The notes beneath the pieces were generated by a model. It was not told the origin of the DNA and searched no databases. It was given only the letters and a program-made list of their open reading frames with translations. Source: a virus. Taken from it: a stretch of 64,000 nt of DNA. Positions 31,901-54,782 of the stretch are shown here, in pieces (position 1 is the stretch's first letter; each line of letters begins with the position of its first letter). Location of the stretch: positions 32,001 to 96,000 of IMG/VR virus record IMGVR_UViG_3300037882_002578. The stretch is one strand, 5' to 3'. Made by a program: the position numbers and the translations under genes.

Positions 31901-32281
31901 TCAGATATCAATAGAGCAAACTTAGCCTCTGACAATCAAGCTCAACAGTTTAATGCTCAAACTCAAGCTCAAGAAGAAAACGCAAGAGCTTCTGACTTAC
32001 AAAGTTATGAAAATAAAATTATGAGAGCTAAAGCAACTACAGATTCTGATAGAAGAGGTTATTATAACCAATTAGAGGCGGTTAATTTAGCAAACTACAA
32101 CGCCGTGAATAATGTAAATTTGTTAAACCAAATGTATGATAACTATGGTTACAATGGAAGTAGTGTAGAGCAGACTCAAGGAGCACCAAAATGGAACGCC
32201 TCGCAAGCAACAGCAAATGGTATCCCCATAACAAACACAAAGAAAAAAACGACTAAAAAACGTTTTGGAGGTAAAATATAA
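28961..32281 (+). CDS. Virion cargo/ejection protein, low complexity with repeated xxxGG motifs
   Basis: 1106 aa, Q/M-rich tracts, GETHEAGG domain, no Cys, directly after muzzle and lysozyme genes. Confidence 0.6.
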   Translation: MKKKLNRKPVYKKGGESWVSDKMNNLPMYQMGTQATLPNTLGFNQSSMNLQPQLNKLDPNSLNYGETWANNNPLPQMGTNSFSYNPNFVEDLNNNPSDILSQNQEQYSYNNTINEDETQSEQFFNPYGGINLESRLAYGANQLGKGNTAQGILGLASGALGAVRTGVGAYAAGNREKYIMNEYNDKVNKAMTPRTMSLEEGGMIDFMQNGGYNYAPTGDRRINTMDAQKINQSTGIQFTPDFAQSYFSQQVPPQTQTPPQVPRKSTNVLDITSDGQFTDRKVWRNQKPEWYVGKKVAVEGVDYDRIPYKQWESYKMTPEYSSFQNQNIDSRIAEYQKGGKKEVPSEDVVNNLQRGMDFAQMAAKYIGSRGALNKVPGGVGSAFGILDAFQNSKNMNPADVIGLIPFVPAQILSETIDQGIRQKKLMEDYAKKAKKNNLNIQLKDNSYTIKDTTLDTNKYQEGGQTGQDQVMQIIQMYAQMAQQDPQTIMEQLQQMSPEEQQMAIQEMAQAVQQPQQEQQFQKGGEFVKKLTGEYTTPLDENDPTINAEVEQGEYLQSPDGEISKALGETHEAGGTKVNLEGGTRIVSDHLKLGGINAKHYKENFDLEVKATDTYAKVLDKFTQKSGLQKIVDEQEKVIEQLKKSEESAQGSSVSESTNNLNKMFLSEKLAELEQEKAPLLEARKSLMEDVFNRQEASKPVEESSEEQYEKGGEVPQYQRGDLTPYQGEGSFSLDNLENFYRQSRGLGYTGKKQIGDIQQWMAKNYPEEVVNYFTKSGQPLTAKHVDLIKSNSRDVFAKTGISPNKTSADYTSEEKVALQNALGERANKEFYLQGFTDNKWDWRAPVMGVPPLAPAGLNAQKISAPQLPNFYREPEKSPILEDTEVGKIKDKQEDTRKSLNLMSLPNQAPMMPDSLEGALKVTRRYDRVNPMQLSPEQQIGAIKGQEAQAIEQINQLPESQRAGALANLSAITQENLAKVYSDINRANLASDNQAQQFNAQTQAQEENARASDLQSYENKIMRAKATTDSDRRGYYNQLEAVNLANYNAVNNVNLLNQMYDNYGYNGSSVEQTQGAPKWNASQATANGIPITNTKKKTTKKRFGGKI

Positions 32282-32290
32282 GTATAGATT

Positions 32291-32329
32291 TAAGCAATTT
32301 GAAGATACCACAGAAATGTGGTATTTTTG
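32291..32329 (+). promoter_or_regulatory. Bacteroidota-type promoter with extended -33 element
   Basis: TAAGCAATTTG (32291-32301), 20-nt spacer, TATTTTTG (32322-32329). Confidence 0.75.
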
Positions 32330-32349
32330 CATATAAATAATTCAAAGAA

Positions 32350-35191: not shown

Positions 35192-38100
35192 ATGGCAGGT
35201 ATAAATATATTTGGAATAGACACTACAATTGATTTAACAAATGAAGTGCGTAAAAAAAATCCAATTGACTCTGCTATGCCAAAAACTTCTGGGTTTTTTG
35301 AATCAAACCAAGGTCAAGATAACGGAGGATTATACTCAAGTTACTTTTCAAAGCCAGAGTCTTTCAACATAAATCAATGGACAAATGAAGATAGAAACGT
35401 CTCTCAAACCAGGTTAAATGATGGAACTTATGTAGATAAATTTGAAGATTATTATGCTGGAACTAACAATGAAGAGCGTCTAGCACAAGGGCAATCCACT
35501 TCTGATAAATGGATAAATGGACTTGAAAAATTAGTTTTAAAAACAGGTAATGTTGTTCTAGGCAATACAGTAGGTTTTGTTAATGGTTTTATAGAAGCTG
35601 CCAAACAAGGAAGTATGTCTGCTATATATGACAATGACTTTACTAAGACACTTGATGATTGGAATACTAAATTAGATTATAAGCTACCAAACTATTATAC
35701 TCAACAGGAAAAAGATGCAGGATTCACAGACAGTTTAGGTAGTGCAAACTTATGGGCTAACGACGTACTAGCAGGAACAGCATTTACTTTAGGTACAGTA
35801 GTTTCGGAAGCAATATGGGCTTATGCTACAGGAGGAGCAAGTTTAGCTTTAAGAGGAGCTAGGATAGGATCAGAAATAGGCGTTACAGCAAGAGCAGTAG
35901 AAAAAATGAAAGGGTTTTTAAAAATACCTTTAAAATCAACAGCTAGTAAGGGATTAGTAAATAGAGAAGGAGCTATATTAGGAAGCAAGGCAGGAGAAAT
36001 ATTAAACACTGTAAGATTTGGATTAACTTCAGCCTCTGGAGAAGCATCTACAGAAGCTTGGCACTATAAAAAAGAAGCTAAAGAAAACTTTTACAATAAC
36101 TTCGAGTCTTTAAATGGAAGAAAACCTACAGACGAGGAAATAAGTAAGTTTGAAGAAGACTTATCTAATTCAGCAAACACAGTTTTTGCCACTAACTACT
36201 TACTTGTGGGCGGAGCTAACTTGGCATTTTTTGGCGGACAATTTGGTATAAAAAACCCTTTAAAATCTTTATCAAAAGACATAAATAAAAGTTTATTTGG
36301 AGTAGGGACTGAAGTAGTAGAGACAGGAGGTAAAAAAGCTATTCAAGCTTTAAAAGCTACTAAATTTCAAAACTTTGCAGGAAAAGCTTATGGAGTAACT
36401 CGAAACTTATTCAACGAAGTAATACTTGAAGAAGGTTTACAGGGGGTTACTGCAAAGACTGCTAATAGTTGGTTAGATAGTACTTATGACCCTAAAAAAA
36501 CTGCGGAAAATCTAGACATGATGGGAATGGTCTATGAAGCTATGGCAGACACCTATGGTACAAAAGAAGGATGGAAAGAGTTAGGTACAGCCGCATTGAC
36601 AACAATTATAGGTGGAGCAGCAACAGGCAACTTGTTTGGAGACGCAAAAGCTATTGACAACAAGAGAAAAGGAATGGAATACAATGCAAGTGGTTTAAAT
36701 ACCTTTGCAGGAGACATTTTCATTAAAAGATTAGCTATGACTAATCAAATACAGGGAGCTAATGAACGTAAAGCAGAAGCAGACGCTAAAGGAGATTTAG
36801 TTGGAGGAGAAATAGCTAGAAATGATAGCATGTTTTCTAGACTTAATTTCAATTATAACATCCAGAGAGACTCTAAAGAAGACATTTCAGACTTACAAGA
36901 CTCTTTAAACTTAATGACTGAAGAGCAGTTCAAGGAAGCAGGGATAGACGCAGAAAACATAGAGCAGTTTAAAACTAATACTATTGAAGAGTACAAAACT
37001 TTATCCGAGTCATTTGAGAAAAATAAAGAGTTTGCTGAGGCTATCATAGGAAAAGGACAATTTGTTGGGGGGAATGAAGCAGGACTTACAAATAAGTCTG
37101 CAATAATAGAAGCTTTAACTTATAACCTTACAATGGGAGAAGTTACAGGTGGGTTACAATCTGATTTATTATCAAGTATTAAAAAAGAAATACTTGGAAG
37201 TTTTACGCAGAGTAATCAACTTGTAGACGCTTTAGATGTAGATAGAGTTCTTATAAATGCCAATAAAAGTACTCAAAAAGATTATCAAAAAGTAAGTAAA
37301 AAGCTAAAAGAAACTTTTTCAAAAAAAGAAGCTTTAAAAAAAGAACTTTTAAGCCTAGAAAGAAATAAAAACACTAAAGAAGATAATACAACCTATAATC
37401 AAAGATACGCTCAAGTATCTAACAAACTATTAGAGTTAGAGGGAGAGTACATAAAACTTACGACGGAAAGAAAGTTGGTATTTAAAACAGCTAAAGTAGA
37501 GAACCCTTTTATAAAAGATGATACCTCAGTTTCAGAAATTGACTTAGATAATACTGAAAAAAAGTTATCGGATTTAAATAAACTTGTTGAAAACTTAAAG
37601 GAGACTAATTTACCAGCACACTTAAAAATTAGTAAATTAATCTCGGAGTACAACCGTTCAGTAGAGCAGTTTAAAGAGTTTAATAATACCGCAAAAAAAC
37701 TTTCAGACCCTAAGTATAAGCCTAAAGACCAAAATAGTTTTCTTTCAAAAATAATTAATGGTAAAAAGTCTATGGACGAATTTACTAGAGACTTTTTCTT
37801 AGAAACTATTAAAAAGTATTCGGACGTAAAGAATGAGTACTTAAAAGAACAGGCAGAAGATATAATTGCAGACGTGTCTAATGAAGAGTATAAAAATTTT
37901 CAAGACAACAAAGAGGTTTCTGAAGAATTGTTAAAAATTATTTCTCAAAAAGTAAAAAACAATGAAACACTTTTACCAAGAGAGAAAGAGATTTATGACG
38001 CTAAAAAAGAAGAAGTAGATGCTATTAGAGATACCATAGAAGTTAAAACACCAGAAGCAGAAACTCCTCAACTATCCTCTACAAAGCAACTAGTAAAAAG

Positions 38101-39994: not shown

Positions 39995-40030
39995 TTAATT
40001 TGCCAAAGTTAAAAATAATATTTACATTTG
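39992..40030 (+). promoter_or_regulatory. Bacteroidota-type promoter
   Basis: TAATTAATTTG (39992-40002), 20-nt spacer, TACATTTG (40023-40030). Confidence 0.65.
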
Positions 40031-40046
40031 TAAAAAATAACAGTAA

Positions 40047-41480
40047 ATGAGTTGTATAGTAATATATGGGGATAGTGGAAATATAGTTGGAACTCAAACT
40101 CCAAAAGAAGAGGTATCTAAACTATTCCCAGAAGTTTTAAATAAAATAAAGAATCCAAAAAGAGCTGCTGACTTAGTGGCTCTAACTTATACAGAAAGAT
40201 TTAAAGAACAAGTTACAACTCCTTTAAAGAGCAAGTACAAATCTTTTATAAGAAAGAGCTTAGATAATTTAGAACCAAGTGACAGAGTAATAAGTCTTTT
40301 ACATAAAGGTAAAGAATATCCTGTAGACTTGAAAAACCTACAGTATAAAACGGTGGAAGTTAATGGATTTACTACTTTTCAAGCTTTTACTAAAGCAGGG
40401 GAAGAATTTGTAATGCTAGGTAAAGTAAGAATGAAACCTTACAAAGATGGATTAGCAATTGAAAGTACTAGTTTAGGTACTTCTCAAGTGTATAACAACG
40501 GCAATATAGAAAATTTACAAGGTAAGGGAATAGGAACAGAGATATACAAGTATGCTATACAAAAAACACTATCTCAAAACAAGCCTTTTTATTCAGACCA
40601 AGCCCAAACAGCGTCTGCAAATGGAGTGTGGGAAAAATTAAAATCTTTAAAAATTGTAAAGCAAGAAGAAGGCAGAAATAAAATTGAAAGTACTCCAAGC
40701 AGTCATTTTGACAACAATGGAGAAGTGCTTCCTCAAGTATTGTTCACTTATTTAAGAGGAGAACAGAATAAAGGAGCTGTACTTACTTTTGAGCAAAAGC
40801 AAGATATAAAAAACGCTTTGTTAACACTCCCTTTTGTGGATTCTCAAGAAATGGCAGATGCTTTAGAAAAAGCTTTCTACAATAATGAAGGAGAATTTAA
40901 AGTAGAAGATAGTAAGCTTAGAGAAATTTATTCTGACTATGAAATCCTTAACATCAAAACAGATTTAGAGCTTCAAAAAAATATTAAAAACATAATAAAA
41001 GCTTTAAAAAATATAGACGAAGTATTTACTAAGGAGAGTTACTCTGAAAGTGATTTTTTAGCAAAGCAGTCTACAATAAACAGTTTAGGAAAGCTTGTAA
41101 ACAACAATCCCCTTTTAACAGAAAAAAAAGTTATTGAAGAGTTAGGCGGAGTATCTGACAGAGAAGAGTTTCTAAGCAAAGCAGAAGCTTTAGAAATACC
41201 AAAAGTACTTGAATTAGCAAAAGAAGAGCCAAAAGAAATAGAAACTCCAAAAATAATAAAAACTAAAAAAATAGTAAAAGAAGTTAGGATTATTAAAGAA
41301 GAAATTATATCTTTGCCAGAAATAAGTAAATTAGAGCTTATTAAATTGCCTTTAATATCTATATCTGAGATAGCAAATGCAAAAACATCTAAAGATATGA
41401 CAAGAATAAGATTAGTTCAAGAAGAGTTGAAAAAAGAGTGGCAAGATTTAGAAGAGTTAAATAATTGTGTATGGAGTTAG
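40047..41480 (+). CDS. Cargo (polyvalent) protein with GNAT acetyltransferase-like domain
   Basis: LQGKGIGTEIYKYAI...SDQAQTASANGVWEKL matches the GNAT acetyl-CoA-binding motif; MSCI N-terminal domain similar to that of the 49230 ORF. Confidence 0.65.
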   Translation: MSCIVIYGDSGNIVGTQTPKEEVSKLFPEVLNKIKNPKRAADLVALTYTERFKEQVTTPLKSKYKSFIRKSLDNLEPSDRVISLLHKGKEYPVDLKNLQYKTVEVNGFTTFQAFTKAGEEFVMLGKVRMKPYKDGLAIESTSLGTSQVYNNGNIENLQGKGIGTEIYKYAIQKTLSQNKPFYSDQAQTASANGVWEKLKSLKIVKQEEGRNKIESTPSSHFDNNGEVLPQVLFTYLRGEQNKGAVLTFEQKQDIKNALLTLPFVDSQEMADALEKAFYNNEGEFKVEDSKLREIYSDYEILNIKTDLELQKNIKNIIKALKNIDEVFTKESYSESDFLAKQSTINSLGKLVNNNPLLTEKKVIEELGGVSDREEFLSKAEALEIPKVLELAKEEPKEIETPKIIKTKKIVKEVRIIKEEIISLPEISKLELIKLPLISISEIANAKTSKDMTRIRLVQEELKKEWQDLEELNNCVWS

Positions 41481-41875
41481 ATGATTTTAAACACGTCCTT
41501 GAAGATAAGAGGCATCAAGAAATACTAACATTACTTTCAAATGCAAATACGGCAAATAAGGGTGTAGTTGAAATAGTTGATGCCAATACAAAAACACTTG
41601 AAAAGTTTATAGAAAAACTCCAAGAAATAAGTAAAGAAACTCCTGCTGATATAACAGTTGAAGTTAACCAAGACTTAGTTATCAGAGAGCTAGCAAAATT
41701 AACTCAAGAGTTTAAAAACAATCTTACGGATTTAAAAAATAATTTAAATAACCCTATAACTTTAGATGTAGAAGAATTAAAGCCTTTACTAAAAAGAGAA
41801 GAACAAAAAAAGAATTGGGTTTTTGACATAAAAAGGGACACTCAAGGATTTATACAAACAATTACAGCAAGATAA
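41471..41875 (+). CDS. Hypothetical coiled-coil protein (first cassette gene)
   Basis: ATG at 41471 overlaps the end of the previous gene; C-terminal WVFDIKRDTQGFIQTITAR hairpin. Confidence 0.6.
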   Translation: MELDDFKHVLEDKRHQEILTLLSNANTANKGVVEIVDANTKTLEKFIEKLQEISKETPADITVEVNQDLVIRELAKLTQEFKNNLTDLKNNLNNPITLDVEELKPLLKREEQKKNWVFDIKRDTQGFIQTITAR

Positions 41876-41898
41876 AATAACCTAAAACCAACAGCCTT

Positions 41899-44451
41899 AT
41901 CGCAGCATTTACAGTAACTACGGCGCAAAACCTAGACCAAATTACAGGAAAGACAGGGGGGGATACCTATTCAATAAACGGAGGAATTCTAACTATAGAC
42001 CAAGACTCTAGAACAGGTTTAAACCAAACAACTTCTACAAGTTTAGGTAGTATTACCTTATCCGCTTCTTTAGGAGGAGTAGTAAACATTGATGGAACTG
42101 CTATATGGATGATACCATTTTCAGCAGGAACAGGAAATGTCCCTGCATTTAATACAGTAATCAGTAACGGTACAGGTACAGGAAAGTTGATTGGAGTTCA
42201 CGCTACTCTTACATCGGCTTCTACAGCATCGGGTGCTGTTATGCCAACCACAGGGTTTATCAGAGTAAAACAAAAAACAGGAGCTTATTCAGCAGGAACT
42301 TTAACAGGCATAGGAGCTACAGCAGACAATGTAGGAAGAGTAGGGTGGATAGAAATAGTTGGGGATGAAGCAAGTACTATAAACGCAAACCGTTTAGGTG
42401 TTTATAACTCTAATGGTGCTTGGTACGAAGTAGGCACAACTTCTGGAGTTTCTAATCAGACTATGCAAATCCCTAATAACGGTTTACAAAGATATTGTGG
42501 AGGAGTTTACATAGAAAAAACAGTGGGTAGTAATGATTTTGAATTTTATCCTAATAACGGAACTAACACAACAACAGGTACAGAAGCTACTAGAGGAAAG
42601 GTAGTTTGGATTGATGCTACAGGACTTGTAAGAATAGGTAACTCTGGAGCTGCAACAAATGGTTTTACACCAATTGCAGGATTAAAAGTAGTAGTAGGAA
42701 ATATATTTTTTGAGAATTGTACAACTGCAGCAAGAACAGCAAATGTAATACCTAGTGCTACGTTAGCTACAAGATATGATTTTACTACCACAGGAGGAGG
42801 AGTTATAAATATTACAAAATCAACTTATGCTTGGTATTTATCATGTGCTCAAGCTTACTCAGTAAATATATCTGAATCTTCCTTTATAGATTCTATATTT
42901 CTATCCGAAGTTGCAACAGCAATGACTTTTAATAAAGTCGGAGTTGGAAACAAACCAACTACTCCATTACTTACATCACCATTAATAATGACGTTTTGTT
43001 TTGCAGGAGGAACGTTTACAGATTGTGTTTGGTTAAGAGTTAGTATGTCAGCATCAGGAGCACACACAAATACTTTGTCAGATTGTTCAGGATTTACTTT
43101 TATAAGAAATAGAATAGCTGCTGGAGTTATTAGAGCAAATGCAACAACCTTTTCTGTAAATGCCACACGTATTAAAAACTGTACTTGGACAACTCCTACC
43201 ATCATACAAGGAGCTATGACATTTACTACTTGTGACAACATACAAATAACGAATACCATTTATTGTGAAGCGGTTTCAGGTACAACACTAACTACTCAAG
43301 TAGGTTATGTATGGACACTAAGTACAAATACCATTAACTGTAAAATATCTGGATTAACAATTCCAGTTTTAAATACACAACCTTATACAGGACTTTTGCA
43401 AATAACAACAGGGTGTTCAAATAACAAACTTAGAAATATTGGTACTAGAGCTTTACCTTTAAGCATGGGTACAGTAAATAACTGTGGATTAATATACACA
43501 ATAGCTTCGGCATGCTTTGAGACTAAGATTCAAAGAGTCTATGTAAGTAATACTCGAACAGGTATTATGACAGGAGATAACTCTTCAAAAGGTCTTACAG
43601 AAGAAAATGTTTTTGGAGATTACGCAGATGCCGTAGACGTTATGGCAGTATTAAACATGGAACGAAAAGGAATGGGAGGTACAGGATTATTAACTGGGCA
43701 AGTTTCTGTTTATGGCACTCATTGGAGGGATGGATTTACTTCTACAACAGCAGGAAGAATAGCAATATTAATGAACGAACCCACAGCCGAAACAACAACT
43801 CAGGTTACACTTACAAACGGTGCTGCCTTTACTTCTGCAGGTGGATTATATATGCCTGTTATAGGACACAAAGCTCTGTTTGAAACACCAAGTTACATAA
43901 TAGGACATAACTCTTTTACCAATACGCCTTTAATAATGGCAGGAGGGACGGCAACAAACTATACTTATAGGTATCAAATAGATAAAGGAGCAGGTTTTGG
44001 GAATTTTAGTTCAGTTTTAACATCTGCAACGTTAGCTACAACTTTAAGTGGAGAAACAGGTATAAATCCCAGTATAGGTATAAAATTAAGATTAGAAATA
44101 ACAACTTCAGTTACGAATACAACAGCAATAACAAGTGTGTTTTTAACAACAGTAAGTTCAACTACTTCTCAAGATTTTCAATACCCCTTAGATACATTTA
44201 AGTTAACACTAAACGGAATAGTCAATGGTTCGGATGTAGTTGTTTTACAAGCAGGGACAGAAACAGTTTTAGCACAAGTAGACCAAAACAGTACAAACAG
44301 TTGGGATTACATCTATGAAATACCTACTATAATTGACATATTTGTTTCTAAAGCAGGTTTTGTACCTTTTTATATTAGAAACTTTACTTTACAATCTTCA
44401 AATGCAACTTTACCAATAGCACAAATTAACGATAGAAACTATATAAATTAA
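41899..44451 (+). CDS. Tailspike/fibre-like beta-helix protein (5' end lacks ATG; ATC at 41899)
   Basis: Frame open from 41881; T/G/S/N-rich beta-solenoid-like sequence, Ig-like C-terminus ending DRNYIN; first ATG only at 42109. Confidence 0.6.
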   Translation: MAAFTVTTAQNLDQITGKTGGDTYSINGGILTIDQDSRTGLNQTTSTSLGSITLSASLGGVVNIDGTAIWMIPFSAGTGNVPAFNTVISNGTGTGKLIGVHATLTSASTASGAVMPTTGFIRVKQKTGAYSAGTLTGIGATADNVGRVGWIEIVGDEASTINANRLGVYNSNGAWYEVGTTSGVSNQTMQIPNNGLQRYCGGVYIEKTVGSNDFEFYPNNGTNTTTGTEATRGKVVWIDATGLVRIGNSGAATNGFTPIAGLKVVVGNIFFENCTTAARTANVIPSATLATRYDFTTTGGGVINITKSTYAWYLSCAQAYSVNISESSFIDSIFLSEVATAMTFNKVGVGNKPTTPLLTSPLIMTFCFAGGTFTDCVWLRVSMSASGAHTNTLSDCSGFTFIRNRIAAGVIRANATTFSVNATRIKNCTWTTPTIIQGAMTFTTCDNIQITNTIYCEAVSGTTLTTQVGYVWTLSTNTINCKISGLTIPVLNTQPYTGLLQITTGCSNNKLRNIGTRALPLSMGTVNNCGLIYTIASACFETKIQRVYVSNTRTGIMTGDNSSKGLTEENVFGDYADAVDVMAVLNMERKGMGGTGLLTGQVSVYGTHWRDGFTSTTAGRIAILMNEPTAETTTQVTLTNGAAFTSAGGLYMPVIGHKALFETPSYIIGHNSFTNTPLIMAGGTATNYTYRYQIDKGAGFGNFSSVLTSATLATTLSGETGINPSIGIKLRLEITTSVTNTTAITSVFLTTVSSTTSQDFQYPLDTFKLTLNGIVNGSDVVVLQAGTETVLAQVDQNSTNSWDYIYEIPTIIDIFVSKAGFVPFYIRNFTLQSSNATLPIAQINDRNYIN

Positions 44452-44458
44452 ATAAAAA

Positions 44459-45811
44459 ATGGCAAAAATAACAAGCCCCTCCCAAATTTCGGTAGGCACA
44501 GAATTAACAATTGACACAACAGCAAAAACATTTACTTTAAATGTAGCAGGAAATTTAGTAGCAAAAGATGGTGTATCTTTTCAAGCGTTATATTCTAAAT
44601 TTATACAATTATGGGAAACAACCGCTTATAATAAATTTGAATTTGGATTTTACGCCATTGATGCATTATCAGGACAATTCCAAATAGGTACAAATGGGCA
44701 AACTTTTAATGGATGGAAGCCTTCAAATGACGCAACTAGACAAATGATTAGAGATGGGGGATGGTCTGAGTTTTCAGCTACGGGGCAATTGCTTAGGCAG
44801 TACGTAGGTATAGTATCTTTGGGAGAAGTTAACACAGGAGCGCAACTTTACTACCAAAAAGTTTTAAACGGGACATCTTCTAATTTTACTTTTTCAGATG
44901 AAGTGAATGAAGGTATTCAAGTTTTTGGTGATATTAATAATGGCAACTTTGATAATCGTAGTTTTTTTAAAGGTTATGTAAGAGAACAAGGAAAAAAATA
45001 TAAAGACTCTATACTTACAGATACAGGTAAAACATCCACAGGTGCGAATATTGTAAATTTACTTTTATCTAATGAAGATGACTTAAAAATACAAGTATCT
45101 GACGCTACCGTAGTTGCAAGTACTCCGTATACAAATATAAATGTTGAGTATTTTGCAACAGACCAAAATAGAACTATTGGAGGAGTGTCTTATCCATTTA
45201 GAACTATTATTAATGGAGCTAATGCCACAGCGGAGCAAATATATACTAAAATACAATACTTACTTAGGCAAGGAACTGATATTGATAATGGAACAGGTAC
45301 TGTAGTAGGAAAAACAGCAAACTTACTTTTAAATTTTGTTGGAGATACTTTAATAACTACAAACGGTGTCTACATTGACAACTATAACACAAATGATGTA
45401 AACAGGCTTGTATTTACAGATAAAAACGGAGTAACAAGAACTGAACCCTTTACCGCTACAGGAACACTAAATTTTAATTCTTTTCTTACACTAGGTGGTA
45501 CAGGATATTATAGAATGTACTTTACAGATTTAGCAGGTGTTGCAGATTATGGGTTGTCTGGAGCAATTACAGTTAATAATGCTGCTGGAGCAGGTGTATT
45601 TGGAACTATCACAAGTTCTTCAATACCCTTTAGTTTCTCTTATGACCAAAATTCACAAGGAGGGCGTACACCAGGGACAGACGCACAAGTTACAGTAGTA
45701 GCAGGTAATGCAGGAAGTGCAAAGCCAGTGGTTACAACTTATACAATTACAAAATCAACAGGTCAAGGTATTTCCCTTATAGCTGAAAATGACCGTGCAT
45801 ATTTAGCTTAA
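44459..45811 (+). CDS. Structural/fibre-associated protein
   Basis: 450 aa, beta-rich, ends ENDRAYLA, similar to the DRNY ending of the previous gene. Confidence 0.55.
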   Translation: MAKITSPSQISVGTELTIDTTAKTFTLNVAGNLVAKDGVSFQALYSKFIQLWETTAYNKFEFGFYAIDALSGQFQIGTNGQTFNGWKPSNDATRQMIRDGGWSEFSATGQLLRQYVGIVSLGEVNTGAQLYYQKVLNGTSSNFTFSDEVNEGIQVFGDINNGNFDNRSFFKGYVREQGKKYKDSILTDTGKTSTGANIVNLLLSNEDDLKIQVSDATVVASTPYTNINVEYFATDQNRTIGGVSYPFRTIINGANATAEQIYTKIQYLLRQGTDIDNGTGTVVGKTANLLLNFVGDTLITTNGVYIDNYNTNDVNRLVFTDKNGVTRTEPFTATGTLNFNSFLTLGGTGYYRMYFTDLAGVADYGLSGAITVNNAAGAGVFGTITSSSIPFSFSYDQNSQGGRTPGTDAQVTVVAGNAGSAKPVVTTYTITKSTGQGISLIAENDRAYLA

Positions 45812-45831
45812 CTTATATAAAAACCAAATAA

Positions 45832-46389
45832 ATGAGTTATATTTTTAATGGTATACAAAAAACAATAACCCTGTCACAAGGAACTGCTAAAATTTCAGTT
45901 AGAGATTTGTGGTCTAGATGGGTAAATTGGTTTTTGACAGACGATAATAGTAAATTCTTACCTGCTTTTAAGATGGTAGGTGGAGAAGATATCAATGCTT
46001 CAGAGGGAACACGTATACCTATATACTCTTTTTTAGAAAATGGGTGGAGAATAAAACCTCAAGAGTCAAACCATACTTTAACAGTAAATGATGGGATACT
46101 TTTAGTAAACGGAGGAGGAGACCCTTTTATAAATACTTCTGGAGCATATACAGTAAGAATAAATTATCAACAACCCTTACAAGCTATATCTTTCTCTTCT
46201 AGTAACACGTCAAACAGCAGTGCAGATTTAGAAGAAATAAAACTTAAAATAGACGAGATGTATAAATTAAGCGGGTTAGATGTTAATAACCCAGCAGTAA
46301 CTACAGCTAATGATATAATAGTAGGAGATATTGTTATAGACATTACAGGAGACGGAGAAACTTCAACAACACTTACAAGAAATGATTAG
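45832..46389 (+). CDS. Structural/fibre-associated protein
   Basis: 185 aa; YSFLENGWRIKPQE motif; tight operon with neighbours. Confidence 0.55.
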   Translation: MSYIFNGIQKTITLSQGTAKISVRDLWSRWVNWFLTDDNSKFLPAFKMVGGEDINASEGTRIPIYSFLENGWRIKPQESNHTLTVNDGILLVNGGGDPFINTSGAYTVRINYQQPLQAISFSSSNTSNSSADLEEIKLKIDEMYKLSGLDVNNPAVTTANDIIVGDIVIDITGDGETSTTLTRND

Positions 46390-46639
46390 TCCTATATCTA
46401 TAGCCACTAGAGGTAGAATAAGTAAGAGTATTAAAAAAACTTTAACTTACTCTACTTTAGGTTTAATGGTTATTATGGCTCAGGAAATTCCTGTAAAACC
46501 GACTGTAATAAAAGGTTCTACCACTCACAGTAAAAAGTTTGTACAGAACATAGAAAAAAACATCCTATATGAAAAAATAATTCGAGAAGATGATGAAATG
46601 TTAACAATGATAAAAATATTTTTACAATGTCAAAAATAA
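46382..46639 (+). CDS. Hypothetical protein (last cassette gene)
   Basis: 85 aa, overlaps both neighbours. Confidence 0.55.
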   Translation: MISPISIATRGRISKSIKKTLTYSTLGLMVIMAQEIPVKPTVIKGSTTHSKKFVQNIEKNILYEKIIREDDEMLTMIKIFLQCQK

Positions 46640-48450
46640 AATGTTTTCAAGGGAATTTTTTACAAAGCGAACTTGAATCAAAAATGTCGCAAGGCATAGA
46701 GGAAACACAATCCATAAAAGAAGTTATTACAGAACAAGCAAATAAAATAATTGATAAAGTTAATAGGTTAAGAGAAGAATTAGAACTACCTTTGCTAGAA
46801 AAAATAATTTTAGAAACTCCAAAAATCACCCAAGAAGAAAAACCCATACAAGATGAACAAATTGTAGAAGTAAAACAAGAGATAGAAGAAATTATAATAG
46901 AAGATATAATTGTTATAGAAAACAAAACTTTATTTCAAAAAATGCAAGAGTTTAAACGTATACCCGAAATGAAAATTGAAGGCAACACTTTAACTCCCGT
47001 AGTTGAAAACAACACAGCAGTTCAATTAGAACAAACTTTAAAGTTAAGCGATGATTTATCTATATCTTCTGACATAATTTACTTAAATGAATTAGCTCAA
47101 GATTTATATAATGAAAACATTGAAGATGTAAAGCAACTTATAAAAGAGGTAGAAGTAAGAGCAGCTAAACAAGGAGTAGACATAGCAGGACTTTCAAGTA
47201 AAGTATTCTCTAAAACTAGAGATGAAATATATGACTTACTAGAGAGTTTAAACACTTTACTTTTAGACCCTTCAGAGCAATCTTTTAATGAGTTTATAGT
47301 AGAACATCAATCAGTTTTTGATTTAGAAGTAAAGCCTAGCGTTAAGGTAGAAGTAGTTTCGGAAAATAATTTAAATAAAAGCCTTATATACTTAAAAACT
47401 AATCTTTCAGAGTATTCGCTTTTCAATGATTTTGGATTACTAAAAGTTTCTGAAGATATATATCAAAGAGTTGAAAAAGAGGATTTAGAAACCCTTTACA
47501 ACAAACTATATGATATATCTCAATACAATCAAAACATATTACCTTTAGAAGCATTCCCTTTAGCAAATCAAGAAGGAGTTATAAGCACAGAAGATTTACA
47601 GAACGCTGAAAATAGAGATTTAATAGTTGCGGACATAAAAAGATTTATAGAAAATGAAGTATCTAAGTTAGACATACCAACTATACCTTTAGATAATACT
47701 GTTTTACAACAAATGGTTATTAATAAATATGCTTTTGGACATCCTATGGCTTTTAAAAAGAATGTATATTTTCAAGAAGAGTTTAACAGTTTTGAAGCCT
47801 TTGATGGGAACGAAGAATACTTAAAAACAGATTTTATAGCTGACTTCTATTCCGAATTTTTGCAAGAAAAAATAAAAGACCGTGAAAAATATAAAGAGTT
47901 CTACAGTAACTTTGCAATAAATGAGAGAGGAATAATACTTGTAAATGATGATGCAATAACAGTTCAAAAAATTAAAGATTATTTAGCCGAAAAAAACATT
48001 AAACAAGCTAAAGATTTAGAGAACTATTCATTATTAACAGACCAAGTACCAAACTTAAAAACTTTAGAAAAACCTAGTTCAGATTACACTAGAGATTTCT
48101 ACAGAGCAAATTATAGTAACAATCCAATGAGTTTGGACAAAGTAAAGGGAGAGTATAAGTTTATAACAGACACTACGATAGTAAAAAACAACAGTATAGA
48201 CAATTTTATAAGAGTTAAAGATAGAGTGTTTGAACTTGTAGACACAAAGGGAGGCAATAGTTTTTATGAAGAAATTCCTGTAAACACATCTGAGTATAAA
48301 ACTTTTAATTTAGCTCAACCTGTTTTAAGTGTTAATATAGATAACTATGGAGCAGAAAGATTAGATGAAATTCCGCCAGTAAAAACTGAAAAATATTACT
48401 CCAAAGCAGAAGAACAAAAAATAAACGAGGAAAGTTTTGAATGTTTATAA
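46627..48450 (+). CDS. Cargo protein, probable C-terminal half of the gene split by the cassette
   Basis: 607 aa, acidic; Cys only at residues 6 and 606. Confidence 0.55.
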   Translation: MSKIKCFQGNFLQSELESKMSQGIEETQSIKEVITEQANKIIDKVNRLREELELPLLEKIILETPKITQEEKPIQDEQIVEVKQEIEEIIIEDIIVIENKTLFQKMQEFKRIPEMKIEGNTLTPVVENNTAVQLEQTLKLSDDLSISSDIIYLNELAQDLYNENIEDVKQLIKEVEVRAAKQGVDIAGLSSKVFSKTRDEIYDLLESLNTLLLDPSEQSFNEFIVEHQSVFDLEVKPSVKVEVVSENNLNKSLIYLKTNLSEYSLFNDFGLLKVSEDIYQRVEKEDLETLYNKLYDISQYNQNILPLEAFPLANQEGVISTEDLQNAENRDLIVADIKRFIENEVSKLDIPTIPLDNTVLQQMVINKYAFGHPMAFKKNVYFQEEFNSFEAFDGNEEYLKTDFIADFYSEFLQEKIKDREKYKEFYSNFAINERGIILVNDDAITVQKIKDYLAEKNIKQAKDLENYSLLTDQVPNLKTLEKPSSDYTRDFYRANYSNNPMSLDKVKGEYKFITDTTIVKNNSIDNFIRVKDRVFELVDTKGGNSFYEEIPVNTSEYKTFNLAQPVLSVNIDNYGAERLDEIPPVKTEKYYSKAEEQKINEESFECL

Positions 48451-48467
48451 AATTCTTTCTATATTTG
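48436..48467 (+). promoter_or_regulatory. Bacteroidota-type promoter
   Basis: TTTG (48436-48439), 20-nt spacer, TATATTTG (48460-48467). Confidence 0.7.
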
Positions 48468-48482
48468 TAAAAAATAAAATAT

Positions 48483-49229
48483 ATGTATAGTAGAGATAAT
48501 TTAAAAAATTTAATACTTAAAGGAGATTGCCTTGAAATAATGAAAAGTATTCCTGATTGTAGTATTGATATGATACTTTGTGACTTACCTTATGGGACAA
48601 CAAAATGTAAGTGGGATACAATTATTGACTTAAAAATGTTATGGTTACAATATGAAAGAATTATAAAAGACAATGGAGCGATTATATTGACTGCACAAAC
48701 CCCATTTGATAAAGTTCTAGGAGCTTCAAATTTAAAGTTGTTAAAGTACGAATGGATTTGGGAAAAAACAAGTGCAACTGGACATTTAAATTCAAAGAAA
48801 ATGCCTATGAAAGCACATGAAAATATACTAGTTTTTTATAAAAATCCCCCTGTTTATAATTATCAAAAAACAGAAGGACATAAAAGGAAAGTAAGTAGGG
48901 CGGAACATAAAATTAATTGTAAAGAAAGTGAGGTTTACAATAAAGGTCAAAAACTAACTACTTATGATTCTACTGAACGTTACCCAAGAAGTGTGTTAAA
49001 ATTTGCAAGTGATAAACAAAAATCAAAATTACATCCAACACAAAAGCCTCTTGACTTAATGAAGTATTTTATTAAAACTTATAGTAACGAAGGAGATATT
49101 GTTTTAGATAACTGTGCAGGTTCAGGAACAACAGGAGAAGCTTGTATAGAGACAAATAGAAATTTTATACTTATAGAAAACGAAGATAAGTACATTAAAA
49201 TAATTAAAGATAGACTTAATAAAAAATAA
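48483..49229 (+). CDS. DNA methyltransferase, N6/N4 beta class
   Basis: Motif IV DLPYG near the N-terminus, HPTQKP, motif I VLDNCAGSGTT near the C-terminus. Confidence 0.92.
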   Translation: MYSRDNLKNLILKGDCLEIMKSIPDCSIDMILCDLPYGTTKCKWDTIIDLKMLWLQYERIIKDNGAIILTAQTPFDKVLGASNLKLLKYEWIWEKTSATGHLNSKKMPMKAHENILVFYKNPPVYNYQKTEGHKRKVSRAEHKINCKESEVYNKGQKLTTYDSTERYPRSVLKFASDKQKSKLHPTQKPLDLMKYFIKTYSNEGDIVLDNCAGSGTTGEACIETNRNFILIENEDKYIKIIKDRLNKK

Positions 49230-52200
49230 ATGAGCTGTATACTAGAATATAATGCACAAAACAAAATAACAGGAGTAAAAGATGCAGAGGGTAACACTTC
49301 TGCATTATTTAATTCTATAATCTCTAACCCTCACTTATCAGTAGAGCAATCTGTTGATTTGTTTAAAAATACTTTTACTAAAAAGTTTAAGGGAGAGCAG
49401 TTACCTATAGAGTACCGAAACAACAATAATGAAGTCTTTCAAACTTTTAAAGAAGCTTTAGATAACACAACTTCAGGAGATATTCAAGGATATAGTGGAG
49501 ATAATTTAATGTTTTCTGTAACTAGCAGTTCAAATCCTGAGTCACTACCTGGGTTTTTGAATTCAATGATTAAGGAAGATGTTATTCTAGGAGAAACTTT
49601 GTTAGATAATGGGCAAAAAGTAATTCAAGTTTCGGGAGCTTCGGAAACTATGAAAGCTATAAAGTCTCAACTTTTCCAAAATAGTTCTTTTAGCTACTTA
49701 GGGATTAACAAAGTTAAAAAACTAAGTAATGGTAACTTTATAATAGCAGAAGAAGAAGAGCAGAAAGAATTGCCAAAAGATTACAAAACATTTGAAGAGG
49801 AGTTAAGTTCTGACCCAATGTACAGACCTTATGGAGATTCAAAAGTAATTCAAGACGAAGTAGAATTACCTAACGAGGGTAAATTAAAAGTTCAAATACT
49901 TTCTCTTTTAAATAAGTTGGGCATAAAAACTATGGGTATATCAGAATACGTTTCAAAATACACCATAAAAAATGGAGTAGAACCTACAGCTCAAGCCTTA
50001 ATAGACATAGCAAATAGAGTAATAGCTTTTCAAGGAAATCAAATTTCAGTAGAAGATTTAACAGAAGAAACGGCTCACTTAATTGTGGAAGGTTGGAATT
50101 CGCAAGAGATAGAAAACCTTTTAAGAAATATACACAAGACAGAAGAGTGGGCAGAATTAAGCGAACAATACAGAGAAATCTATTCTAAAAATTATAGCGG
50201 AGAAGAATTAGAAACCGTATTAAGAAAAGAGATTTTAGGTAAAGTTTTAAAGAACGCAATTCAAAACAGTTTTCAAGTAGAAAACAAGACAGAAACACAA
50301 CAAAATTTTATTGAAAAAGTAAGAACCTTATTTGAAAGTTTTTTCACTAAAGTACAAGTTTTATTTAAGCCTCAATATGTTTCCGATTTGCAAGAATTTA
50401 ACAATCAAGTTATTCAATTGCTTCAACAAGAGGAGTTACAAAACTACTTATCTAATGAGCAGTTATCGACTAGTAAGTTAACTCTGTATAGTGTACCAAA
50501 CAGTCCAAAAGACCCTATGGCATTACAAGTAGCAGTAGCTAGAAAAGCTATAGAAGTGTTAGAAATAACTCAGAACCAACTTTCAAAGGTAAATGGAATT
50601 TCTTCTAGTAAAGAGTCTATTCTTCGTTTAAAAAGAAATCTTGACGATATTGATGAACAGAATAAACTCGCTTCTTTTGCAGGTATAGCCGCTTCAGTAA
50701 AAAATCAAATAAAGTATTTAAATAAAGCTTTAAAAAATAACGATAAAAAGAAGCACCCTTTCTCAACAGAAGAGAATGTTGTCTACATGACATTGCTTAA
50801 TCAAATGAGACCTATACTTAGTGAAGTAGGAGCTTTATTAGAACCTTCAAACTATAATGACAGACTCATAAAAACAGAAATAGATGAAGCTATTATAGGT
50901 ATTCAAGATTTATATGGGCAAGTTAAAAGCATAGATAACTATGAAGTTTTGGAAAACTTAGTTGAAGATTTAGCTGTAAAGCACAATTGGTCGGAAGAGT
51001 CTAAAATAAACTATTTAAAAGTAGCAAAAGCAGCAAAAAAAGATACAAATTGGGCACATGCTTACTTTGGAAGTTTAAATCATGCTGAAAACCCTTTACT
51101 TAATCTTTTTGGTGAAAACATTAAGAAGATTACTATGCAAACTTATAGAGACCATGCTAATCCAACAACAGATTTACTGTTAACTTTAGAGTCTTTAGGA
51201 GTTAGTCAAAAAGAGTTAAATTCTTTAAGAAGAAGTAGTTTTTTAATTGATGAAGTAGACCATCAAAAAGTTGAAGACAAAGTAAATGAGATAGAACTTA
51301 AAGCTTACAATCAATTTTCTGGACAAGAGCCTTTAGAAATTAAAGAGTATTTAATAAAGAAGAGAGAAGGTAATTTACCCGATGTTCCAAACGATAAGTT
51401 GCAAGAGTATAGAGAGGAAATTAAAGACGAATTAAATCAGTACTTAGAAAGACCTTTTAAAGATGAATACTATGCTAAAAAAGAAGCTCTATACGAACAA
51501 GAGAATATTTCTCTAGAAACTAGAAAATGGTTAAGTACTATTTCAAGTGACGTAGCTTCAATATATCAGAGAGCTAAAGATGAGAATGGAACTATAATAT
51601 TGACAGAAGACTTAAAGTTTAATTTAGAACAAATTGCTAAAGAAAGAGCTTTTGCTAAAAGTCCTTATACAACAGATGGCAGTTACAAGCAAGGACTTGG
51701 AGGAGTTATAGATTCAGAAGGTAATCTAGAAATAGTTATAGTTGGAAACACATCTGAAGAAGCTTTAAGGGCTTATGAACTTGCAAAGTTAGATAAGATT
51801 TTCCTAGAGGATTTAAAAAATAATAAGAAAGATGCCAAAGGCATACCTGTTAAGTTTATTCAGGAAATAGAAAAATTAGAATCTAAAGGAGACTTTAAAG
51901 GAGCTTTTGATTTCTTAAAACTAAATTCTTACTTAGGGTTTAACAGAGAATTTTGGGACAGTTTGGGCGCAAAAGAAAGTTTAATAGAGAGACTTTCAAA
52001 CGTACAAGGAGATAATCAACAAAGAGCAGAAGAATTAATTTTCTCCATTAAAGAATTACAAAGCAAGAGAAACAATATAATAAAAGGTAATAGAGTACTT
52101 AACCAACCTTCAGAAACAGATGTAGAAAGAATGTCTAAATCTGAGAAAGAATACATAAAAGAGTACACAGAAAAGTTACAGTTATTATATCAAGAAGCTT

Positions 52201-54782
52201 CTACATTTTTTAAGAAAGAAGCTAGTGAGGAAGATGTTGAAGAAACTTCTGAAAATACAGTAAATCAAGCTTATAGAGACGCTCTAAAAGACTTAGGAAT
52301 AGTAGGAGTTGCAGAGTTAGATTTTATAAGAGAGCATACAACGTCAAACGGTAAGGCAGATATAGATTCAGCTAGAACTTTTGTAAATATGTTGTTAAAA
52401 GGGCAGTTAGTAAACATACCTAAAAAGTTTGAAAAATATTTTAGGACTAATTATCCTAAAGACCCTATTCAAAGACAAATTGCTGTAGAGAAAGATTTAA
52501 TAAGATATGCTCAAACAAGATTATTACCTTATTACACTAAGTTTTCTCCTGCAGGGTATGATGCTTTAATTCAGGGCTTAAACAGTGGAAATAAGAAAGT
52601 TTCAGAATTACTTCAAGAAGTAGCCGATGGACAATCGCCTTTGACAGTAACTCCAAATTATAGTTTCTTTGAAGCAGAAGAAAGAACAGATTTAAATGAG
52701 AAGTACGTAAGAAATTATGAAGGTGGAAGATATCAATTTAAAGGAGATGATTTTAAAAGTGCAGACTATGTAAATCTTTTTGAGCCAGATGAAAATGGAA
52801 ATCCAACAAAAAATGAAAAGCTGTTTAAAGCTAGACAAGCATTATTAGATTACCATAGAGAATCATTACAAGCAACAGATACTTTAAATCAGCATAATAT
52901 ATACAAACTGCCTCAACAAAGTAAATCTAGTTTAAGAAAATTAGAAGCTTTTGCAAAACAGCCTTCGTTTGGTAAAATTAGAGAAGGTATAAAAGATACA
53001 GTAGGATACAGAGAAGAAGACATAGCTACAGGAGAAGTTATAGAAGGAAGCGAAGAGTTCAAGATAGAGAATATGAAAATTATTCCTAAATATGGCTTTA
53101 AAGACTTAGCTAATCAAGATGACTTATCAGACGAACTTTTAACTAGCTACAGTTGGATGCACGAACAAAGTATGTTGTATAGAGCTAGAAAAGAACATAT
53201 AGGACAAGCTTTAATGCTACAAAGTTCCATACTAAATGACACTTACATAGGCAAGCAAGCAGCAGCTACAGCAACATATAAAATGTTTCAATCTCACATG
53301 GATGAAGCTTATTTTGGAGTTAAAGAGGATATCGATTACAACATAAACTTTTTTAAGAATTATAATGTAAACGTTTCAAAACTTTTAAGAATATTTTCAA
53401 CTTTTGTAAGATTTAGAAACTTAGGTTTTGCAGTCATTTCTCCAGCAACATCTTGGATAACGGCTCAAACTCAATTTTACTTGGAAAATAAAGTAGGGGA
53501 GCACGTAGATATGTCATCTACTAAGATGGCTAATAAAGAGTTTAGAAAACTAGCAGGAGCAGCTATAGCAGAAACGGGCGAAATAAATTCAAAAGCAAGG
53601 TTAAACATACTGTTGGAAAACTTTCTAGTGTACGACAAATCAGAAAGACTTAAAAACTCTTCCTTTGGAAAAGTTATGAGAAACATGGTAAAATTACCTT
53701 ATGCAACACACTCAATGGGTAACTTTCCAGTAATCCCTAGAATAGCTTTAAGTGTAATGTATGATTACAGAATTGTAGATGGAAACATTCAAAACTTCAA
53801 TGAGTTTAAAAGAGCTAATCCAACTTTGTCAAGTCTAGAACTTAGAAATACTTGGAATGCGAATGAAGAGAACGCCATGTACAAGTTTATGCTTACAGAT
53901 GATGGAAAGTTTAATTATGACAAAGCTAAAATGGAAACTTTATTAGGTAGGTCGGGAGAAGAATTAGAAAAATATCTAAAACTTAAGAACGAAGCAATCT
54001 ATCAAAGAATTAGTTATGCAGTTCAGAACATAGATGGTCAAATGCCTGAAGAAGAGAAGAGCATTTCGGCTCGTAACCTATTTTTACAGTTACTCACCGT
54101 TCATAGGTCTTTTATACCTATAGCAACAGCTAGAAGATTTAAAAATAAACACATTTCTCTAATGTCAGGACAAGTTGAAGAAGGCTCTTATAGGACTTTA
54201 GGTAGGTTTATAAAAGGTTACTTTGAGCAGTTTACTAAAGATGACGTAAAAAACTTAGGTAAAGATATAAAAACTTATTGGGCAGAGTTCACTAAAGATG
54301 ACGATAACGCTAGAATGAACATGCAAAGAAACGGTAAAGATTTTCTAATGTTAAATTTAATTGCAGGTTTAAGTATTCTACTATCTAAAATAGCTGATGA
54401 CGAAGAGAATAAAGACGTTTTCGCTATACAGGCTGTCAACTACTTAATGTTAAGGTTAACAAATGAAACAGCCTCTGTAGGTGTTGCACTTCCAGCAACT
54501 TATTATGAAGTCGTAGAGTCAAGTTTTGTCGGATTAAATGTTATTCCTGATGTTTTATCAGTTGGTGATATTGGAAATGATGAACTAGTAACAAGTGGTA
54601 AGTGGTATGGAGCTACAAAGAATCTTAGGTATTGGGGACGCAATACTGGGTTGATAAAATCTTATTTTGATTTAAAAAACGTGCAACGTGTTAAGGATTC
54701 TTACGTTAGAAATTCTGGAACTTTTATGTATTTTACACCCGCTTATCTTTTATCTGAGAGTAAAGATGAAAAAGAAAACTAA
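49230..54782 (+). CDS. Large polyvalent ejection protein with zincin-like metallopeptidase motif
   Basis: 1850 aa; EETAH (50064-50078) followed by a downstream E, typical of polyvalent-protein peptidases; hydrophobic helices near the C-terminus; only Cys is residue 3. Confidence 0.6.
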   Translation: MSCILEYNAQNKITGVKDAEGNTSALFNSIISNPHLSVEQSVDLFKNTFTKKFKGEQLPIEYRNNNNEVFQTFKEALDNTTSGDIQGYSGDNLMFSVTSSSNPESLPGFLNSMIKEDVILGETLLDNGQKVIQVSGASETMKAIKSQLFQNSSFSYLGINKVKKLSNGNFIIAEEEEQKELPKDYKTFEEELSSDPMYRPYGDSKVIQDEVELPNEGKLKVQILSLLNKLGIKTMGISEYVSKYTIKNGVEPTAQALIDIANRVIAFQGNQISVEDLTEETAHLIVEGWNSQEIENLLRNIHKTEEWAELSEQYREIYSKNYSGEELETVLRKEILGKVLKNAIQNSFQVENKTETQQNFIEKVRTLFESFFTKVQVLFKPQYVSDLQEFNNQVIQLLQQEELQNYLSNEQLSTSKLTLYSVPNSPKDPMALQVAVARKAIEVLEITQNQLSKVNGISSSKESILRLKRNLDDIDEQNKLASFAGIAASVKNQIKYLNKALKNNDKKKHPFSTEENVVYMTLLNQMRPILSEVGALLEPSNYNDRLIKTEIDEAIIGIQDLYGQVKSIDNYEVLENLVEDLAVKHNWSEESKINYLKVAKAAKKDTNWAHAYFGSLNHAENPLLNLFGENIKKITMQTYRDHANPTTDLLLTLESLGVSQKELNSLRRSSFLIDEVDHQKVEDKVNEIELKAYNQFSGQEPLEIKEYLIKKREGNLPDVPNDKLQEYREEIKDELNQYLERPFKDEYYAKKEALYEQENISLETRKWLSTISSDVASIYQRAKDENGTIILTEDLKFNLEQIAKERAFAKSPYTTDGSYKQGLGGVIDSEGNLEIVIVGNTSEEALRAYELAKLDKIFLEDLKNNKKDAKGIPVKFIQEIEKLESKGDFKGAFDFLKLNSYLGFNREFWDSLGAKESLIERLSNVQGDNQQRAEELIFSIKELQSKRNNIIKGNRVLNQPSETDVERMSKSEKEYIKEYTEKLQLLYQEASTFFKKEASEEDVEETSENTVNQAYRDALKDLGIVGVAELDFIREHTTSNGKADIDSARTFVNMLLKGQLVNIPKKFEKYFRTNYPKDPIQRQIAVEKDLIRYAQTRLLPYYTKFSPAGYDALIQGLNSGNKKVSELLQEVADGQSPLTVTPNYSFFEAEERTDLNEKYVRNYEGGRYQFKGDDFKSADYVNLFEPDENGNPTKNEKLFKARQALLDYHRESLQATDTLNQHNIYKLPQQSKSSLRKLEAFAKQPSFGKIREGIKDTVGYREEDIATGEVIEGSEEFKIENMKIIPKYGFKDLANQDDLSDELLTSYSWMHEQSMLYRARKEHIGQALMLQSSILNDTYIGKQAAATATYKMFQSHMDEAYFGVKEDIDYNINFFKNYNVNVSKLLRIFSTFVRFRNLGFAVISPATSWITAQTQFYLENKVGEHVDMSSTKMANKEFRKLAGAAIAETGEINSKARLNILLENFLVYDKSERLKNSSFGKVMRNMVKLPYATHSMGNFPVIPRIALSVMYDYRIVDGNIQNFNEFKRANPTLSSLELRNTWNANEENAMYKFMLTDDGKFNYDKAKMETLLGRSGEELEKYLKLKNEAIYQRISYAVQNIDGQMPEEEKSISARNLFLQLLTVHRSFIPIATARRFKNKHISLMSGQVEEGSYRTLGRFIKGYFEQFTKDDVKNLGKDIKTYWAEFTKDDDNARMNMQRNGKDFLMLNLIAGLSILLSKIADDEENKDVFAIQAVNYLMLRLTNETASVGVALPATYYEVVESSFVGLNVIPDVLSVGDIGNDELVTSGKWYGATKNLRYWGRNTGLIKSYFDLKNVQRVKDSYVRNSGTFMYFTPAYLLSESKDEKEN

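Follow-up and report, generated by a model that had tools for sequence, protein, structure and literature searches.

CrAss-like phages, which no other viruses of the human gut match in abundance, carry and deliver approximately 1 megadalton of protein, their RNA polymerase included, and the way in which they do so is an open question. The stretch analyzed here, a window of 64,000 nucleotides corresponding to bases 32001–96000 of the complete 135,902-bp virus record IMGVR_UViG_3300037882_002578 with terminal repeats, raises a more specific one: why do four proteins encoded in it, P1600, P477, P607, and P1850, carry cysteine (Cys) only at their ends? The source is a complete 136-kilobase (kb) crAss-like phage related to the Cellulophaga phages phi4:1 and phi17:2.

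Translation revealed that the four proteins contain 6 Cys in 4,534 amino acids (aa), every one of them within six residues of a terminus. P1600 has a Cys at the C-terminus (tail Cys) only, P477 and P607 have both an N-terminal (head) Cys and a tail Cys, and P1850 has a head Cys only. Across the remaining open reading frames (ORFs) of the window, Cys accounts for 1.21% of the residues (148 in 12,205 aa); 55 Cys were expected in the four proteins versus the 6 seen (Poisson P ~6e-17). The probability that random placement would bring all six within six residues of an end is ~1.4e-12, and no further large protein of the whole 135,902-bp genome had its Cys confined to the ends. The proteins encoded upstream, P367, P1106, and P946, contained no Cys. 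The codon positions of all six terminal Cys given in an earlier note on this DNA were reproduced exactly by translation, and its description of the three upstream cargo proteins as Cys-free was correct. The tail-to-head order that it assigned to the four proteins, hereafter the chain, also stood, with the correction that their genes are not contiguous: non-chain genes interrupt P477/P607 and P607/P1850. The block is organized as follows (window coordinates).

27855–28958, plus strand: P367, Cys-free ejection protein upstream of the chain, with a phage tail lysozyme domain (PF18013 Phage_lysozyme2, E = 1.8e-29).
28961–35190, plus strand: P1106 and P946, Cys-free virion proteins upstream of the chain, blastp orthologues of phi4:1 gp040 and gp039.
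35192–39994, plus strand: P1600, first chain member; its sole Cys, C1599 of 1,600 (codon 39986–39988), is penultimate and follows an acidic stretch.
40047–41480, plus strand: P477, second member, corresponding to the N-terminal half of a middle protein that has been split; C3 (40053–40055) and C474 of 477 (41466–41468).
41471–46389, plus strand: insert of 5 kb of non-chain genes (a 134-aa ORF, P780, P450, and P185) between the middle-protein halves.
46627–48450, plus strand: P607, third member, corresponding to the C-terminal half of the same middle protein; C6 (46642–46644) and C606 of 607 (48442–48444).
48483–49229, plus strand: P248, DNA methyltransferase with 7 Cys (phrog_67, E = 1.8e-79), a non-member between P607 and P1850.
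49230–54782, plus strand: P1850, last member; its sole Cys, C3 (49236–49238), opens a head module of ~100–180 aa (49230–49769).

The four chain proteins are most likely virion-packaged, injected ejection proteins. The nearest cultured relatives of the phage are phi4:1 and phi17:2 (~29% identity), together with the gut phage csAssE-Sib, and the chain orthologues of phi4:1 (gp035, gp037, and gp038) are annotated from virion tandem mass spectrometry (MS/MS), so that virion presence is shown for the orthologues only. For phi4:1 gp040 and gp039, the orthologues of P1106 and P946, presence in the virion is likewise proven by MS/MS. The block is preceded by a portal gene, structural genes, and the gene for a muzzle-like giant protein.

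The arrangement of Cys was conserved in comparisons spanning homologues at 22–30% identity. In phi4:1, the only Cys of gp038 (1,957 aa) is its last residue, gp037 has C4 and C516, gp035 (1,914 aa) has only C3, and gp039–041 have none; csAssE-Sib follows the same plan. The tail Cys was found in 12/12 P1600 homologues and a head Cys in 0/12, and 8/9 homologues of the middle protein had exactly two Cys, one per end. The head Cys of P1850 was present at position 3–7 in 75/76 homologues and was the sole Cys in 68 of them, at lengths of 1,800–3,100 aa; in an alignment of 28 diverse members of the family, C3 was among 24 invariant columns. When a profile of the first 180 residues of this family was used for an unbiased search of 1.84 billion cluster representatives, 471 clusters were retrieved. 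The head Cys was present in 131/132 of the new clusters, and among the 95 new proteins of at least 1,500 aa it was the sole Cys in 81, including one of 4,862 aa. The earlier note had called for a tabulation of Cys in orthologues; at 26 related IMG/VR loci, whose chains have from two to four members, tail and head Cys were co-conserved, both being present at 43/44 junctions between separate genes. The lone exception is probably a truncated ORF call, because its close relative (L033) starts Met-Ser-Cys (MSC). Extra Cys per member averaged 0.1 in environmental phages and 2.9 in the gut epsilon-group.

Splits and fusions of the chain genes serve as natural experiments. Residues 1–388 of P477 match residues 1–388 of an unsplit middle protein (P0005; 59% identity), and residues 48–607 of P607 match its residues 338–897. 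Unsplit middle proteins have no Cys at the split point. In the split forms, found in the window and at two other loci (L003 and L004), a newly added tail of 89 aa carries C474, a newly added head of 47 aa carries C6, and the 5-kb insert separates the two; C3 of P477 remains on the canonical head module, and C606 of P607 is the ancestral tail Cys. A P1600 homologue (L027) is cut near residue 950 and has likewise acquired a new tail Cys and a new head Cys, with a 167-aa gene in between. Conversely, in five two-member chains (L022, L023, L024, L029, and L034), P1600-like and P607-like parts are fused and the junction Cys are absent, and four proteins (P0177, P0188, P0191, and P0139) contain an internal copy of the head module without its first ~20 residues and without the Cys. 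Since Cys are gained at splits and lost at fusions, the pair tracks the loss and gain of a peptide bond: it arises where a peptide bond is lost and vanishes where one is gained. The proposal in the earlier note that each tail Cys pairs with the head Cys of the next protein is thus borne out as far as the joint behavior of the two residues at junctions, splits, and fusions is concerned, and the bond itself is what we infer for this phage. The compared sequences demonstrate the rule itself, the fact that it is conserved, and the way in which the Cys come and go as genes split and fuse. A different origin for P477, as the C-terminus of phi4:1 gp038, was considered and rejected; P477 matches the N-terminal part of unsplit middle proteins.

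The same rule was found beyond this clade, in Crassvirales. In crAss001, gp47 has only C2339 of 2,341 residues, gp50 has C5, C2404, and one other Cys, and gp49 has only C5; the rule holds here although gp47 is encoded on the opposite strand. In phi14:2, the only Cys of g067 is its last residue, g066, the virion RNA polymerase of solved structure (PDB 6VR4), has only C3 and C2179, and g065 has only C3. DAC15 and IAS virus obey the rule with a few extra Cys, and so does crAss002. Two proteins of Leptolyngbya phage Lbo-JY46 also conform: one of 1,552 aa has its sole Cys as the last residue, and one of 2,748 aa has C4 alone. Residues 75–474 of P1600, in its N-terminal region, are homologous to residues 33–512 of crAss001 gp47 (E = 1e-13), and P1600 matched, in tblastn searches, "RNA-polymerase subunit" genes of cr85_1 and cr128_1. 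The C-terminal region of crAss001 gp49 matches phi4:1 gp035, the P1850 orthologue, and residues 1195–1749 of P1850 match crAss-like genomes; the match of the P1850-family C-terminus to phi14:2 g065 is weak (E = 0.004). The middle family measures ~800–900 aa when unsplit; the middle member in the window has no DFDxD motif and is not the two-barrel RNA polymerase. According to the preprint on the phi14:2 polymerase, which contains neither the word "cysteine" nor the word "disulfide," the three proteins are fused as one polyprotein in some phages. The crAss001 atlas describes many inter-subunit disulfides in the virion (tail) and states that cargo must partly unfold to exit; it is silent on cargo cysteines.

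The crAss002 protein gp33 (L090 3270–3375) has an annotated start 32 codons upstream of an internal Met-Ser-Cys. Judged by the head-Cys rule, its true start is probably Met33, and the rule is in this way of practical use as an annotation aid.

A structural precedent exists for one junction. In the cryo-electron microscopy structure of cyanopodophage A4 (Anabaena phage A-4L), the C-terminal helix of gp27 lies in a cleft of gp26, and the two proteins are joined by a Cys1715–Cys5 disulfide (PNAS 2025, PMC12002296; gp26 is PDB 9k3a). In the A-4L genome, we found that C1715 of 1,717 in gp27 and C5 in gp26 are the sole Cys of each protein and that the inner ejection protein gp29 has none. The earlier note knew of no description of such a system. 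This does not hold for a single pair, which the A4 disulfide represents; as to a chain of several members, a full-text literature search found no description, and the A4 paper neither generalizes the rule nor links it to gene fission or fusion (PMC12002296).

Among 21 tail-bearing proteins, no column of the last 250 residues is invariant except that of the Cys, and among 26 proteins with the head module, C3, V16, S24, and G136 are invariant. No conserved His, Asp, Glu, or second Cys was found in either set. A hidden Markov model (HMM) of the head module built from the last proteins matched the N-termini of middle proteins of this clade (E = 4e-9 to 1e-5), always from residue 1–4; it gave no match to those of the Crassvirales or A4 proteins. 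A 180-aa model of the head was confident (pLDDT 90.7, pTM 0.85) and predicted a small alpha/beta domain in which the Cys directly precedes the first strand. A Foldseek search with it returned no PDB match. VIA-align returned weak rows only, the third being residues 2–95 of 6vr4_B (Z 5.1, root-mean-square deviation 2.8, 68 aligned); the likeness to the N-terminus of the phi14:2 polymerase is weak and counts as a lead rather than a finding. A 650-aa model of P1850 was mediocre (pLDDT 69.7, pTM 0.36), and its fold search gave only generic three-helix bundles. Two further roles of the head Cys were considered and rejected. A split-intein or native-ligation role does not fit the residue before it, which varies (S, A, K, N, T, D, P, or V), or its flanks of only 0–5 residues, and a lipoprotein role does not fit the lack of a signal peptide.

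We consider it fairly likely that docking of tails on heads, together with intermolecular disulfides, yields a linear P1600-P477-P607-P1850 concatemer. Every member but the last ends in a tail that is acidic and probably helical and has its Cys among the last one to four residues, and every member but the first has a Cys at position 3–6, which in P477 and P1850 opens the conserved alpha/beta head module. Each tail would dock on the head of the next protein in the particle, and the two Cys would bond as a disulfide, giving a product of 4,534 aa and ~515 kDa. The bonds would form once the particle meets oxidizing conditions, and reduction in the host cytoplasm would free the proteins; other Cys would have been purged to prevent wrong bonds. 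Because the link would substitute for a peptide bond, chain genes could split, fuse, or take inserts with the connection kept. The chain may be threaded through the tail as one string before being reduced in the cytoplasm, and it may, as the earlier note proposed, set the order in which the proteins are ejected or their stoichiometry; what the scheme says on these points, on the direction of ejection, and on when the bond forms is supposition that goes beyond the comparisons made here.

If true, a conserved end-to-end tether would account for the cohesion and fixed order of proteins made from separate genes, for the freedom with which the chain genes split, fuse, and take up inserts, and for the near absence of Cys from the cargo proteins. 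The idea is directly testable on the cultured phages phi4:1, phi14:2, and crAss001. A broader version is more speculative, and we put it forward tentatively, as something that may well prove wrong: the head module and the Cys-ended tail could be a general, modular plug and socket with which crAss-like phages, and podophages of other kinds, link cargoes in any number (RNA polymerase, polyvalent effectors, and small enzymes) into a redox-locked thread that is pulled through the tail in fixed order and released by reduction only in the cytoplasm, which would make gene fission, gene fusion, and cargo swapping almost free in evolution.

Several other explanations of the terminal Cys were weighed against the disulfide-linked concatemer. 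The two Cys of a junction could share a metal ion (Zn, Fe, or Cu) instead of forming a disulfide, an option that the earlier note had kept. Two thiolates from two chains can bridge one metal, and the gut relatives keep their terminal Cys where oxidation is slow; a stable structural site, however, usually needs three or four ligands, and the A4 map shows a disulfide. Since neither the tail nor the head offers any further conserved His, Asp, Glu, or Cys as a ligand, a metal site is unlikely and the disulfide is favored. Alternatively, each terminal Cys might be bound or processed by something else, such as a structural virion protein, DNA, a thioester, or a protease step. This would be compatible with the fact that the bond in this clade is deduced, not seen, and the neighboring muzzle-like P1891 is itself Cys-rich and ends in Cys. 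A general end-anchor would not predict, however, that the head Cys is never on the first member and the tail Cys almost never on the last, and fissions and fusions add or remove the two residues jointly; we regard such separate partners, too, as improbable.

The pairing could also follow a different topology, in which the head of each middle protein is bonded to the tail of the same molecule and the first member of the chain to the last. The numbers of heads and tails balance equally well in this case, and in two-member chains the pair would be the same as that in A4. Where a split has produced a pair of new ends, each with a new Cys, the simplest assumption, however, is that they join there again, and middle and last proteins have homologous head modules, as expected if all of them receive tails alike, which leaves this topology very improbable. 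Least credible, with hardly any chance of being correct, is the explanation that Cys is lacking only for the sake of unfolding and envelope crossing and that those at the termini persist as tolerated remnants or as a signal at the nucleotide level near gene ends. It would account for the wholly Cys-free upstream ejection proteins P367, P1106, and P946, but the terminal Cys are invariant at the low identities compared here while their neighbors vary, and they persist where chain genes lie kilobases apart or on opposite strands.

A number of observations weigh against the disulfide-linked concatemer. The contact of a tail helix with a head through a disulfide has been seen in phage A4 only, and for this phage and for crAss-like phages in general it is putative. 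All comparisons of A4 gp26 and gp27 with the window proteins gave phmmer E > 0.01, 9k3a was not listed in the fold searches with the 650-aa and 180-aa models, and the A4 precedent may be an analogue rather than a homologue. The new head of P607 is not the canonical head module, and the counts of heads and tails fit the alternative topology equally well. Particles assemble in a reducing cytoplasm, so the bond would need to form after release; for the gut relatives, this would fall in a largely anoxic habitat. In the genome, no thioredoxin-fold protein was found, and a search for Erv1 was uninformative, as it did not recover its own controls.

Pfam, PHROGs, and PDB sequence searches gave no named function for the four chain proteins; none of them had a Pfam or PDB sequence match, the P1850-family profile matched no PDB chain, and the DFDxD polymerase motif (sought as D[FY..]DxD) occurs in none of the four. 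Megablast of the region against the phage collection returned no match. Among the genes of the insert, P780 has 13 Cys, and P450 and P185 are Cys-free; P780, P450, and P185 had no family or PHROG lead, and P780 and P450 no ESM Atlas lead. Within 42109–46389, the C-termini of P780 and P450 carry similar motifs, NDRNYIN and NDRAYLA, and the P185 homologue at L003 has 434 aa and five Cys. At the place of the P248 methyltransferase, two other loci (L019 9058–9999 and L033 9043–9999) have a gene of ~315 aa with normal Cys content, and the spot between the last two chain genes seems tolerant of inserted genes.

The muzzle-like giant protein upstream is likewise split, into P1891 and P311 (21235–27855), which match positions 6–1744 and 2049–2287, respectively, of the phi4:1 gp042 family profile (2,289 aa). 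P1891 is Cys-rich with Cys as its very last residue, and P311, which starts MACNC, contains nine Cys among residues 1–50. These ends lie in a Cys-rich region, so they do not follow the sole-Cys rule; they may form a related clasp. Outside the window, a 124-aa ORF on the minus strand (genome 109103–109477) starts MSC and has one further Cys. The genome has no spare tail Cys to match it, and its head Cys is probably due to chance. In csAssE-Sib (L002 33086–39488), the annotation divides the P1850 orthologue into two genes that overlap in different frames, of 281 aa with C5 and of 1,885 aa. Many IMG/VR relatives have this type of orthologue as one 2,140-aa ORF starting MVSTC or MTSTC, and a frameshift or sequencing error in the csAssE-Sib record is likely. 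In phi4:1, gp026 (L001 3984–4412), annotated as a cysteine dioxygenase, is encoded a few kilobases from the chain genes.

The proposed chain can be compared with several known systems. In the docking domains of modular polyketide and non-ribosomal peptide synthases, a short C-terminal element fits an N-terminal element of the next protein and preserves the order of the proteins after a gene split. This C-terminal-to-N-terminal fit between giant proteins resembles that proposed here; unlike it, docking in the synthases is non-covalent and cytoplasmic and unconnected with virions. In adenovirus, the C-terminal peptide pVIc, with a penultimate Cys, forms a disulfide with its partner, the viral protease, inside the virion; unlike the proposed chain, this bond activates an enzyme and builds no chain, in an unrelated animal virus. 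The relatives of P1850 also resemble the polyvalent proteins, which are giant, multi-domain, and delivered with DNA (Iyer et al. 2017, PMC5512222). P1850 itself has no Pfam match, and its homologues P0060 and P0084 carry ART-PolyVal, LPD23, and Kinase-PolyVal directly after the head module. Iyer et al. describe domains that are peptide-bonded and released by proteases, and the words "cysteine" and "disulfide" are absent from their text (PMC5512222).

A4 shares with the window consecutive ejection-protein genes whose only or nearly only Cys are a tail Cys in the upstream protein and a head Cys in the downstream one, as well as a Cys-free protein and a lytic-enzyme ejection protein encoded upstream. 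It differs in having a single pair, with no middle members that carry both Cys, and in being a 42-kb T7-like phage. The crAss trios (gp47/gp50/gp49 of crAss001 and g067/g066/g065 of phi14:2) are virion-borne, follow the terminal-Cys rule, and include relatives of the first member of the window's chain (gp47) and of its last (gp49 and g065). The middle member in the window, in contrast, is not the two-barrel RNA polymerase and is split in two. What is new with this window is a chain that has a non-polymerase middle member and in which a recent fission has created a fourth member.

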